A stretch of 50,167 bases of DNA from contig CAMDWQ010000003.1 of assembly GCA_945877765.1 (NCBI GenBank), positions 1 through 50,167 of the forward strand, in the 5' to 3' direction. The notes beneath the pieces are model-generated. The model had not been told where the DNA came from. It saw only the letters and a list, made by a program, of their open reading frames with translations, and did no database searches. Below, in pieces: positions 45,127 through 50,167 of the stretch. The DNA comes from Candidatus Omnitrophota bacterium (GTDB taxonomy: Bacteria > Omnitrophota > Gorgyraeia > 2-02-FULL-51-18). The translations under genes and the position numbers were made by a program. Each line of letters opens with the position of its first letter. Within the stretch, counting starts at the first letter, position 1.

Positions 45127-48100
45127 TTAGGCGTTGGACTCGACCGTACGGGAGAGCAGGTAAAGCTGCATGGCTTTTTTGAAAGTGGCCCAAACCTTGG
45201 CGGGAAAAGCAAAGTTTGCAATAGCCTCCTTCTCGCCTTCTAGAAAATCTTTGAAGTCCTTCATTTCCATTGCCTTGCGCTTTTGGGTATCTATTCCGTA
45301 CTCAGGAGCTATGGAGAGAAAATAATCGAAAGCCTCCTTGAGCCGCCCATCCGCCAATAGTCTCATCATGTGACCCACCTCGCTAAATGCAAAAACTGGA
45401 GCCTGGCCACCCACTTGGCCTTGCAAAGTGACCCGAAGAAGATTGGAAGGCAGCTCAATATTTAGCTCAGGAAGTTTAGATTGGGCGTTAGTCAGGAGAA
45501 TATTGGAAACACCCTGACCTTTAAATGATTCCGGAAGATTTTGCAAGCTTACAAACTGGCCAGCTTGTTTAGACCGAATGGTTTCACCGAGAACACTCAG
45601 CGCCTTCTTCACCTGACCCTCATCACCCAACAATACTACCATCGAGGTAGGCGACAAACCTGATGCTTGATGGATAGCAAAATTTTGAAGTTCTTGGGTA
45701 GGCATATTGGACACATCCACAAAAAATACAGCGAGGTTGCTCAATACAGGAACTACCGCGTGGCCAGCTCGGTTGGCAGCAAGAACAATATTAAGTTTTT
45801 TGGTGAGTTCGTCGTTGCGCGTATTTTTCATGGTATTGCGATCTTCTTGCCGAGCCAGATTCACAGCGCCGTTTGAAGTATTCAGGATGTAGGAGGCGCC
45901 GCCAGTGACCACCAAAAGCTCGCCGTCTCGTCCCGTCAGTTCGTACACCTGCACTTCCCCGCTTTCATCGGCCAATGCAAGGCTTTCGGTAAATGTCCGG
46001 CTCAGAATCGGCACAAGATCTGTTAAAAAATACTGCACATTCCTAGCTAGACCGTCGGTCGGCGTGACTACAACCTCTGGCGAGGTTTCTGAAAAGTCTG
46101 CCCGCCAGACTCTGAGCTCGGGTGCTCTAACGCTTCTATTCAAAAGGTCAAAATCAGCTTGCGCCGATTCATCGGTGGACGCCAGCCGGGCGGCAATCGG
46201 AGTGAACTGACTAGCAATTTTTTTGGCCTGCTCGTCCTCAAATACAGCGGGCTCATCAGACTGCCTGAGATTTAAGTAACGTGCTTCGACAACATATGAA
46301 CTGCCTTCCCTAGACGCTCTGTTAAAAGAATGATCTGTGACTTTTATAACCGTTATGACTAAACGTAGGCCTGAACTGGAGTTAGCGAGATAACTATTTA
46401 TGCTTCTGGTCCATCCGCTTAGTGGGTACGATTGATCAAGTAGCACAGACGACCACGGTGTTTGTGTGGGAATTTCAATAATGCTTCTTTTTTTCTGAGC
46501 TGTTTTCAGGCTATCTATCACTTGCTTATCTGTAGGCAGACTTGGATCAGCATTAGACCGTAAACTATCTTGCAGGGTTCCCAGAGCAGAAAGCGTGATC
46601 AGTGTCCTTATGTCACCTTGTTTGCCCAGGCCCAAAAGAGCCACCTCTTGTGGTAACATCGCCGGTTTAATTTCACCCAGGTTTATAAGCTCGACCCGGC
46701 CGGCCGCATACCTATTGCCAGTACTGACCCTGGCAATAGAGTCTTTTAAGATGCTCGCCGTCACAATAAGATTAGCGGGAGTTGTGTTTTTCGGAGAGAT
46801 TGTCAATGAAGCAAAAACCAATTGACTTGCGCGGTCTTGGAATCTGACTTCAAATTCTACCTTACTCTCCACACCTGGAAACAAGCTCAGATCAATCGCA
46901 AAAACTGGGGGCGTTGTTTCCTCGGATACAACAGACGCGGCGGAAATGTCTAAGACCTCCCTACTGTTGAAGTGAATAGCTCCGTGAATAGTCATCGGTA
47001 TACCCTGGCTAAGTTCCAAATTATCCATCCCCTCACGAGTTCGGAGTTCATTGAAAAAACTAACCAACCCATTCGTAATAGCCTCAGCATCCACAGAAGA
47101 GAGGTTCAATTTCTTATTAACCCGGGGCCTTAACAGGGGGGGGTCAGGTAGATACGGCACGACCAAGCCTCTTCCGCTTTTATTATTACCCGCGCTATCT
47201 GGATGAGGCGGATGTGGATGACGTATTCTATTTGAACGATGGGAGGTCCTATTCTTGTTAGCAAGCCGGGCGGCGGATGGCGCCGCCAGAAGAACTTGGG
47301 GGATTGTGATATTTTCGTTTTCGACGTTTCCTTCGTTAATACCTTGTTTTACATGGAATTCTGTTATCTCACCACCCTCGCCGAAAAATCCTATTAAATC
47401 CTTGGCAGACACGGCAATCTCGATCATTTGCCCGTTGGACAATGAAGTTGCTTTCTCTCCCTGTGCCGCCCAATCATTATCAGTCTTTGAGAAGGTGGTA
47501 ATATAATTTGTTACTTCCCCTTTCCCATTTTTGCCTCGAATTTGAATGGTAAATTTCGTAAACGAAGCCACTTTTGGATTAAGCCTAAGAACAACGTAGC
47601 TGTCTTTCATTGCACTGAGTTTGGAGGGAAATCTTTCGAGTTCGGTAACTTTACGCATATAGGCGTAAAATTTTTCACTAGTTTTATGACCATACTTGCC
47701 GCTTAGAGGTTGCTCATTAACAATAACTCGCAGATTCGTGGGGTGTTTTGGTTGAGGGGTTTTACTTCTAACTCCGCCGGGGCCTTTCCCCTCCCACTCA
47801 GACGATATAAAAAGACCGGAATTTTCCACTGGGTCGCTCACTCCATAGCGTCCCTCGTGGGACTTGCCAGTTTCCTTCGCTTTCCAGGGGTTGTTGTTGA
47901 ATTGAAACCAAGTCACGCGAATGATGTTGGGCGTCCTTTCCACCACTTCGAATACTTTCTTCATAAATTCAAGTTGTCGGGCCGCTTGATCTTCACCAGC
48001 AGCGTTTTGATTAGGGAGACCGATTTCCTGGATGATCAGCGGTAGTCCGGCTAGCTCCGCCGATGCGGCAGCCCTTTCAATCAGCGAGACATCGCCATTC

Positions 48101-50167: not shown

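Follow-up and report, generated by a model that had tools for sequence, protein, structure and literature searches.

Several systems are known in which one long chain unites parts of unrelated function. In picorna-, poty-, alpha- and nidoviruses, a single open reading frame (ORF) gives rise to many mature proteins, which are released at a short junction motif by a protease of the same chain. The MARTX toxins of Vibrio and its relatives are built from exchangeable effector modules, and short sites between these modules are cut by a protease that is likewise part of the chain. In polymorphic toxins and the Rhs and CDI proteins, the N-terminal part is conserved and the C-terminal cargo hypervariable, and each genome encodes many paralogs. 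In the phylum Omnitrophota, giant genes are a recognised puzzle, and the accessible parts of the literature ask whether their products act whole or cut; in the available text of West-Roberts et al. the cleavage of giant proteins is an open question. The same portions of the giant-gene papers describe the cleavage points as unknown, which blocks the prediction of structure and function for each product; they propose C39 or S8 peptidases for the processing and name these two as the peptidase-like N-terminal domains. The present analysis concerns the pentapeptide AARLA, which recurs in a giant ORF of a Candidatus Omnitrophota bacterium. The stretch of DNA analysed (the window) corresponds to bases 1 to 50,167 of contig C3 in the genome G000 (1.65 Mb, 39 contigs, 97.9% complete) and carries the C-terminal part of this ORF.

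The giant ORF is located on the minus strand, with its stop codon at 45127-45129, and stays open to the end of the window. The part within the window (45127..50167) contains the last 1,679 codons and the stop of a frame that, as the original prediction had assumed, continues beyond the window; it extends to C3:54225 and has 3,032 codons from stop to stop. Its first ATG stands at codon 23 (MKRHRAPF...); with initiation at a TTG, the protein would have 3,022 aa. An alternative genetic code was rejected as the reason for the long frame, which stays open when table 11 and its three stops are applied. Outside the window the ORF encodes a Sec-type signal peptide (C3:54090-54159, minus strand), a tentatively TIKI-like head domain of about 600 aa (C3:52282-54156, minus strand), two copies of the motif and predicted membrane helices. 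Six copies of AARLA are present in the full frame. Four of these had been noticed in the window, at aa 32, 343, 948 and 1308 of its 1,662-aa TTG-started ORF, and were found there in the contexts SAARLAK (50008..50022, codon 1402 of the full frame), NAARLAT (49075..49089, codon 1713), SAARLAN (47260..47274, codon 2318) and IAARLAS (46180..46194, codon 2678), all on the minus strand; the other two are at codons 690 and 876. The segments between the copies do not resemble each other, as had been claimed, and no internal match was found when the ORF was compared with itself. AARLA is one form of a five-residue junction motif, [GA]-A-R-[LM]-[AST], and the reading favoured here, with moderate confidence, is that this motif provides the processing sites of polyproteins among the Omnitrophota giants.

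The ORF resembles the viral polyproteins in being a single frame with a short conserved motif at every junction and a candidate protease in the chain, provided that cleavage takes place as we infer. It differs from them as a member of a cellular, chromosomal gene family with rapidly changing modules, and no homology to viral proteases was detected. With the MARTX toxins it has in common the giant mosaic of exchangeable modules, and RRSP, a structural neighbour of the head (Z 6.1), is itself a MARTX effector. Unlike these toxins, the ORF contained neither RTX-type repeats nor Peptidase_C80 in a Pfam scan (E <= 1), its candidate protease is N-terminal and has a different predicted fold, and the site is a strict five-residue one. 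Moreover, the cargo here includes housekeeping-type enzymes and complete secretory preproteins, and tens of paralogs are present per 1-3 Mb genome. The polymorphic toxin, Rhs and CDI systems also have a conserved N-terminus, variable cargo and many paralogs, whereas the proteins described here carry several modules each, with a universal motif in between and cargo that is often enzyme-like instead of toxin-like, and no immunity-gene pattern was seen. The previously described giants of Omnitrophota (Archaeovorin, Dockerin-type) are, according to the available descriptions, very long ORFs with many unrelated domains as well, and cleavage is suspected for them. Unlike the Archaeovorin and C39-type giants, the present ORF was devoid of Peptidase_C39, dockerin and SecA-like domains in the Pfam scan. 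The string 'ARLA' was absent from the main texts of the Omnitrophota giant-gene papers, which were not searched for a TIKI-like head; the lone occurrence of the word 'motif' across these texts is in a 2023 preprint, and a literature word search for the motif gave irrelevant matches only.

The motif was counted in G000 against the rest of the proteome, using a crude, non-overlapping set of 1,319 ORFs, and was found far above chance and confined to giants. Among the ORFs of 1,500 aa or more, the 24 that bear the motif (70,103 aa), which were chosen for containing ARLA, hold 64 copies of AARLA and 72 of GARLA, against 0.32 and 0.21 expected from composition, corresponding to a 200- to 340-fold enrichment. 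The remaining 1,295 ORFs (447,961 aa) hold five and three copies, respectively. Permutations of the motif residues in the same 24 giants had a median count of 0, and those counted more than five times all overlap the motif. ARLA is present 141 times in all 29 ORFs of at least 1,500 aa (83,031 aa), five of which lack any motif copy, versus 23 times in the shorter ORFs (433,716 aa). It is preceded by glycine in 72 cases and by alanine in 60, i.e. in 132 of 137 sites, and the wider flanks are nearly information-free. The same words head the k-mer lists of giant ORFs from other genera and families and from two other families of the order. A set of 80 ORFs with 1,000 aa or more (209,845 aa), taken from loci of other Omnitrophota metagenome-assembled genomes (MAGs), has GARLA as its most frequent 5-mer, with 203 copies; some of these MAGs bear an automatic 'uncultured Planctomycetia' label. 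Finally, 144 representatives of the giant family with at most 50% identity to each other (467,376 aa) contain 866 copies of [GA]AR[LM][AST], against 12.3 expected, and the motif is present in 126 of them, including 109 of the 121 with at least 1,500 aa. A chance origin is rejected by the counts in G000 and in the 144 representatives. The copies are spaced by a median of 276 aa (interquartile range 147-505) in the representatives and of 306 aa in G000. The original prediction had described AARLA as a feature of this one gene; the repeat is real, but the motif is broader than AARLA and clade-wide.

The one-substitution spectrum around GARLA was used to describe which residues are tolerated. Position 1 prefers Gly over Ala (147 copies), and at position 2 Ala is far more frequent than Ser (39), Thr (30) and Gly (17). 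Position 3 accepts Arg only: with the other 19 residues taken together, 12 copies were counted where 27 are expected, and Lys shows no enrichment. Leu at position 4 is followed by Met (141) and, at a large distance, by Ala (19) and Phe (16), and Ala at position 5 by Ser (93) and Thr (33), then Val (14) and Gly (11). No enrichment was observed for chemically different residues that are one mutation away, and all six Arg codons and all six Leu codons are used within the motif. This pattern indicates that purifying selection acts on the motif at the peptide level, and it looks like the specificity of an enzyme or a recognition site. Because only conservative substitutions are enriched, it speaks against a passively decaying DNA scar. 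AARLA had originally been proposed to be a processing site and/or a module-joining scar; the idea of a selected junction between independent modules is retained, whereas the scar as sole explanation is weakened by the substitution pattern.

The codons of the motif led to a different explanation, in which it is primarily a DNA element, that is, a 15-nt site of recombination or cassette joining with the peptide as a by-product. Synonymous sites are biased toward GGC GCG CGG YTG GCG both in G000 and in other genomes. The share of CGG among the Arg codons of the motif is 49%, versus 14% elsewhere in the G000 giants, and 47% versus 19% in other genomes. At the DNA level, the pattern GSNGCNMGNYTNGCN had 172 matches in G000 versus 32 control matches; its per-genome counts in 31 genomes were not used against head copy number, since they are confounded by G+C content, with controls ranging from 2 to 200. 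A DNA element would also fit the very fast turnover of cargo, with no cargo orthologue in five genomes of the same genus and single modules elsewhere, and the observation that homologous modules end exactly at the motif. Yet no synonymous codon family is missing, and even AGR and CTN/TTR codons, which differ at two or three bases, are in use; the neighbours one mutation away in which Arg is changed to Gln, Leu, Pro, Trp or Gly are unenriched while the chemically conservative ones are enriched. In addition, every copy of the motif is read in frame and in sense, the rest of the genome shows no enrichment of it, and nucleotide conservation is absent beyond its 15 nt. A primary role as a DNA element is thus judged very unlikely, and such a role could coexist with processing. 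The synonymous bias may reflect a second, nucleotide-level constraint (recombination, pausing or RNA structure) beyond the protease model.

The codon at position 4 raises the question whether the modules are made separately at translation, either by internal initiation at an NTG codon of the motif or by a 2A-like 'stop-go' event. Position 4 is Leu or Met and is encoded by CTG, TTG or ATG in 69% of sites (386/556). With M/L followed by A/S/T, positions 4 and 5 look like a common type of protein N-terminus, as in the MA-QKRDFYEVLGV of a DnaJ module. On the other hand, the remaining 31% of sites have CTC, CTT, CTA or TTA, which cannot initiate, and no conserved Shine-Dalgarno-like signal is present upstream. 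The preference for codons ending in G extends over positions 2 to 5 and is not limited to position 4, and there is no resemblance to 2A peptides as they are commonly known. Separate production at translation is consequently hard to credit, and we give it very little weight.

The placement of the motif relative to protein domains was assessed next to its composition. The approximately 10 residues on each side of the motif have a hydrophobic fraction of 0.16-0.23 (background 0.33) and a fraction of P/S/G/T/N/Q of 0.43-0.44 (background 0.315), in agreement with the linker-like context first described. Of 14 giants scanned with Pfam, the C3 ORF included, three had no match, and the remaining 11 yielded 14 domain regions. 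None of the 14 regions contains a motif, and several are framed tightly by it. A DnaJ domain starts 3 aa after GARMA, and an HTH_3 domain starts 1 aa after GARLA. A hexokinase module spans motif 998 to motif 1439, a starch-synthase module spans motif 1863 to motif 2476, and a PP-binding module, at 88 aa from one motif to the next, is as long as an acyl carrier protein. In a relative of 885 aa the TIKI-like head is followed by AARLA and GARLA, and a Ser/Thr kinase starts 14 aa after the latter. Two G000 giants have a 54%-identical module in common, and the similarity is confined between motifs, with decayed copies (PSRLG, GARSA) in one of them. Free-standing G000 paralogs were also considered as boundary markers, and five usable matches were too few to inform. 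A short conserved motif thus stands at the joints of units that fold and evolve independently, and the sequence comparisons support well that it is the junction between independent, protein-sized modules.

Signals for export provide a further mark of N-termini. In the 144 representatives, signal-peptide-like segments are found directly after 28 of 840 motifs and before six of 840, compared with 1.0% at random positions, and Tat-like RRxFL sequences were counted 18 times after the motif versus three times before it. The same asymmetry was present in G000 (7/153 after versus 1/153 before) and in the MAG loci (17/538 versus 3/538, with few duplicates from overlapping loci). Signal peptides after rather than before the motif are expected if the motif creates new N-termini. 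The motif itself was also compared with a signal peptidase I site, a rhomboid site and a double-glycine leader, judged by their generally known specificities, and these candidates were rejected, as it has no upstream hydrophobic or leader pattern.

Within the window, the module that follows the second AARLA copy was characterised by structure prediction. The motif copy at codon 1713 is directly followed by a putative twin-arginine-type (Tat) signal peptide, TRLNRRAFLETGLVATAPLLAWSASA (48997..49074, minus strand), read from the sequence, and TatC is encoded in G000. Downstream of the signal is a (beta/alpha)8 core (47899..48981, minus strand) with invariant GNE..NY and ..QE.G.. glutamates. In an AlphaFold2 (AF2) model of codons 1660-2360 this core was confident, with a predicted local distance difference test (pLDDT) score of 70-98, and Foldseek matched it to GH2, GH5 and GH1 enzymes at E about 2e-9. 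All 12 sequences of alignment A2 keep both catalytic Glu residues (E275 and E408). Based on the predicted fold and the two conserved Glu residues, the module is assigned to the glycoside hydrolases of clan GH-A; a Pfam scan of the whole ORF (E <= 1) gave a single weak match, Glyco_hydro_cc, below its cut-off. A beta-rich C-terminal subdomain (47329..47691, minus strand) was delineated from AF2 strands, with pLDDT about 50-64, and from alignment A2, and it is present in the copies borne by giants and absent from free-standing homologues.

The glycosidase module has counterparts in giants of other genomes. Homology with a giant of another genus begins exactly at the second AARLA of the window (codon 1713 here, motif 1061 there), and the copy at codon 1713 is the point where homology to the glycosidase modules of other giants starts. 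All five giants compared, each from a different genome, have the motif ahead of the module and a Sec or Tat signal peptide immediately after the motif. The signal is of the Tat type (RRxFL) in the window ORF and in C28 and Sec-like in the other three. A closing motif is found 537-605 aa downstream of the opening one in four of the five; in the window it is the SAARLAN copy at codon 2318. Free-standing glycosidase homologues of 420-450 aa in relatives carry an N-terminal signal anchor at the aligned place. The paralog at G000:C28:491-8899 (plus strand) contains two Tat-type signals, SGARLARNRRSFLKQS.. and SGARLAAGAESRRNFLTT.., each directly after GARLA.

These arrangements bear on the possibility that the junctions are left uncut and the giants work intact as multi-enzyme or scaffold proteins, the motif being a docking, chaperone, secretion or Arg-modification motif or simply a favoured linker. 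Peptide-level selection and a linker context would fit any recognition motif, and the available part of a 2026 preprint describes 'multi-enzyme metabolic clusters' along intact long polypeptides, without invoking processing. However, internal Sec and Tat signals after the motif, which are N-terminal in free-standing homologues, make little sense in an uncut chain. DnaJ and HTH domains, normally N-terminal, start 1-3 aa after the motif, and a plain linker needs no invariant Arg that excludes Lys. An intact, uncut chain is for these reasons considered rather unlikely.

The remaining parts of the ORF in the window are two modules and a C-terminal domain. The 306-aa module between the first two motif copies (49090..50007, minus strand, codons 1407-1712) had no Pfam match and no relative among 30 related genomes. 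The 355-aa module between the third and fourth copies (46195..47259, minus strand, codons 2323-2677) was likewise without a Pfam match, and no relative was found among related genomes. A conserved C-terminal domain of about 285 aa, ending in ..TVESNA (45130..45978, minus strand), is common to the C-termini of giants in other genomes, with 42-45% identity to G014:C63 and 32-33% to G009:C5, both of other genera. In other giants the motif stands 35-37 aa upstream of this domain. No Pfam family was matched by it in the ORF scan, and it may be the common tail of a subset of the family. Only the glycosidase and this domain, among the modules of the window, recur in other related genomes, and no orthologue of the window's 1,679 residues was found in five genomes of the same genus.

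The motif coincides with a particular N-terminal domain. About 20 giants of G000 have their first ~600 residues, the head domain, in common; every motif-bearing giant of this genome has the head at its start or is cut by a contig end, and the motif is missing from large ORFs that lack the head. Of the 125 complete N-termini of the family, 117 carry a Sec-type signal peptide whose site is AxA-like (..[KR]..S..L....F..QE.S[FY]A|xP). Among 31 related genomes, 28 contain the head, with as many as 43 matches in one genome and open frames of up to 13,272 aa, and so do 150 of 201 genomes sampled across the phylum, with frames of up to 16,618 aa. In a library of 1.84 billion proteins the family forms 9,883 clusters at 50% identity, and the head was N-terminal in 150 of 150 proteins among the matches listed. 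Eleven positions are invariant in 18 of 18 head paralogs (D107, H109, E138, E287, E298, E392, E397, R493, G558, G559 and H561). The first motif follows the conserved GG[YF]H by 60-130 aa in 76 of the 144 representatives and by 70-125 aa in 55 of 96 giants.

A peptidase domain was sought in the upstream part of the ORF, and the head emerged as a candidate hydrolase or peptidase on the basis of its predicted structure. The AF2 model of the head (pLDDT 73) has an alpha/beta core that is split by a helical insertion of about 300 aa. It was compared with 48,161 chains using VIA-align, for which a background of Z 7-8 is stated for such models. The highest neighbours included ChaN (2g5g, Z 8.9, root mean square deviation (rmsd) 6.6, 194 aligned), HopBA1 (5t09, Z 8.4, rmsd 3.5, 162 aligned), the erythromycin esterase EreC (6xcq, Z 8.4) and proteins of the Bcr135 type (2qgm, Z 8.3; 2rad, Z 7.4), with PMT (2ebf, Z 6.2) and RRSP (5w6l, Z 6.1) at lower scores. 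TIKI-type structures made up seven of the 25 top rows. According to the accessible part of PMC6254334, ChaN, HopBA1, the Bcr135-type proteins, PMT and RRSP belong to the TIKI superfamily, and the RRSP endopeptidase uses Glu-3900, His-3902, Glu-3930 and His-4030 together with Arg-4001. According to the text available from PMC8191133, the protease TIKI1 takes eight residues off the N-terminus of Wnt3a, and both TIKI1 and RRSP appear in these sources as site-specific endopeptidases (PMC6254334, PMC8191133). The head has D-x-H, a Glu 29 residues further on, then Arg and then His, which is the catalytic order of RRSP (2His/2Glu plus Arg), with the first three residues spaced as in RRSP, when compared along the sequence only. 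Unlike the known members of the superfamily, the head carries the ~300-aa insertion, Asp as the first acid and kilobases of fused cargo, and it has no significant sequence match in Pfam or the Protein Data Bank (PDB). A tentative resemblance of fold and invariant residues to the TIKI/RRSP hydrolases is suggested by these models. Other searches with the head returned its own kind: the sole match in the ESM Atlas was its own 'hypothetical protein' cluster (0.86), and a search for homologous proteins gave 29 matches, all unnamed or 'hypothetical protein', with no precomputed Pfam domain except in one kinase fusion. A complex prediction of the head with a 46-aa motif-bearing stretch scored 0.00, which counts neither for nor against binding.

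If the motif is cut, the protease could also be one other than the head, namely the Peptidase_C39 of another class of giants or a housekeeping protease. Peptidase_C39 classically cuts after Gly-Gly or Gly-Ala, and the motif begins with G-A or A-A, similar to sites of the double-glycine type as generally known. Two giants with C39 are present in G000, on C10 (4,239 aa) and C26 (2,295 aa), and the signal peptide of the head argues against an action of the head in the cytoplasm. C39 and S8 domains are also proposed as processing enzymes in the available text of West-Roberts et al. Against this explanation, no leader-like pattern is found upstream of the motif (at most 0.45 bit per position), S8 was not found in G000, and the motif is confined to head-bearing giants, which points to the head. 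Peptidase_C80 (PF11713) was not found in G000 either, in a search that was uninformative since the control genomes were silent too. Cutting by an enzyme other than the head is accordingly regarded as unlikely, with the C39 giants as the weaker candidate for a protease acting in trans. These C39 giants, G000:C10:44640-57356 (plus strand) and G000:C26:83-6967 (minus strand), are similar to each other, lack both the head and the motif and form a separate class.

The favoured reading, a processed polyprotein, draws on the protease-site-like specificity, the strict placement between modules and the N-terminal-type features directly after the motif. Members of the giant family open with a Sec-type signal peptide and the conserved ~600-aa head, for which a TIKI/ChaN/Ere/RRSP-like alpha/beta fold with the ~300-aa helical insertion is predicted and in which the residues D-x-H, E, R and GG[YF]H are invariant. 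The head is followed by cargo modules the size of whole proteins (median about 300 aa), the series of which changes fast. Part of these modules are without a family, and others resemble the signal-bearing glycosidase, hexokinase, acyl carrier protein, DnaJ, helix-turn-helix proteins and protein kinases. Endoproteolysis at [GA]-A-R-[LM]-[AST] would free these modules as separate proteins, and the head domain would do the cutting in cis or in trans. We infer from comparative and predictive evidence that cleavage takes place, and the same holds for its scissile bond, its protease and its compartment. The head is the most plausible protease, which is somewhat less certain than processing as such. 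ClpS was not found in G000, so that the N-end rule offers no handle on which bond is cut.

Several observations weigh against this interpretation. The main difficulty is one of topology: by the usual rules, the Sec signal peptide places the head outside the cytoplasm, whereas part of the cargo (hexokinase, DnaJ, acyl carrier protein) looks cytoplasmic. Furthermore, cargo with its own Sec or Tat signals needs a precursor in the cytoplasm, and a head that cuts everything there requires extra assumptions. Possible ways out of this problem are co-translational cutting, action in trans, and processing that takes place once the chain has been delivered into another cell. Signal-like segments follow only 3-5% of the motifs. 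The pLDDT values below 50 across both motifs flanking the glycosidase, outside the confident core, and in the stretch just before the first motif in the head model count in favour of the reading, yet they may stem in part from shallow alignments (12 and 18 rows). As to the TIKI assignment, the Z values of 8-9 are near the noise level of the tool itself, and the first acid of the head set is Asp, where RRSP has Glu. Foldseek with the head model gave no match at E <= 0.001, and a PDB search with the head sequence profile yielded chance matches only. None of the 18 head paralogs reached the curated cut-off of the TIKI-type Pfam models (Cofac_haem_bdg/ChaN, TraB_PrgY_gumN and Erythro_esteras); PF04187 matched one of the 18, with E 0.016, below cut-off. 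The synonymous bias of the motif toward GGC GCG CGG YTG GCG, given above, belongs to the same side. Some head-bearing giants are also poor in motifs: C1:117135 has none in 3,197 aa, and the giants of G021 have almost none. The latter (L064, L094, L098, L111, L146, L152 and L154) keep the head, and x-[VTAS]-R-M-A recurs in them instead, which may be a lineage-specific version of the junction motif.

The topology problem would be reconciled if the giants were secreted effector polyproteins. In such a scheme the chain would be exported and delivered into a host or prey cell, where the TIKI-like head would cut every motif, in the manner of the CPD of MARTX toxins, and set the modules free to work within the victim. 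The victim would be rewired by sugar kinases, J-domain proteins and protein kinases, and modules with Sec or Tat signals, such as the glycosidase of the window, would be re-exported by its machinery and attack the wall from inside. The Sec signal on the head would thereby be compatible with cytoplasm-type cargo and with internal signal peptides. To our knowledge, such a delivery logic of effector polyproteins has not been described for bacteria that target other microbes, and we consider this variant decidedly unlikely.

The ORF is embedded in an ordinary cell-envelope neighbourhood with adjacent lipopolysaccharide-core genes and no dedicated protease gene. Downstream of it are an ORF with a PIN domain (44080-44475, plus strand, 131 aa, E 6e-14) and a sugar kinase of the PfkB family (42709-43707, minus strand), and upstream on the contig are DUF3108, three heptosyltransferase-type genes and a polysaccharide deacetylase. 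The sequencing runs listed are three DNA runs from a single lake-water study, with no RNA run among them. Strongly hydrophobic, membrane-helix-like stretches were read from the translation at C3:51200-51500 and 50600-50700 (codons ~925-1030 and ~1175-1200), between the second and third motif copies. An in-frame, purine-rich simple repeat of GGAGGAT-like units is present at 50022..50064, beside the SAARLAK copy, and reads PPSSILQPPSVL in the gene. Repeats of GGAGGAT/GGATTGA units are also found at C3:52534-52564 (plus strand), at 52615-52652 (minus strand) and at about 25 further places in G000, in either orientation. They are mostly in frame within variable loops of the head domain and encode PPSSILHPPSVL on one strand and GWRMEDGG on the other, and one giant has an inverted pair of them about 60 nt apart. 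A general DNA repeat of 37 nt was considered as the source of AARLA and rejected; it is a separate purine-rich repeat that encodes PPSSILxPPSVL.

With a universal junction motif that can easily be scanned for, each giant ORF would become a series of predicted mature proteins of typically about 150-500 aa, and the cleavage of giant proteins in Omnitrophota would become directly testable. The motif also comes with a named candidate enzyme, the so far unannotated head-domain family. If the interpretation is true, hexokinase, acyl carrier protein and a Tat-exported glycosidase would be recovered from what is now a 'hypothetical giant protein', and gene counting, metabolic reconstruction and the prediction of localisation in the phylum would be affected. 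Polyproteins would then be used by a cellular organism to an extent otherwise seen in viruses alone, tens of times in a genome of 1-3 Mb.

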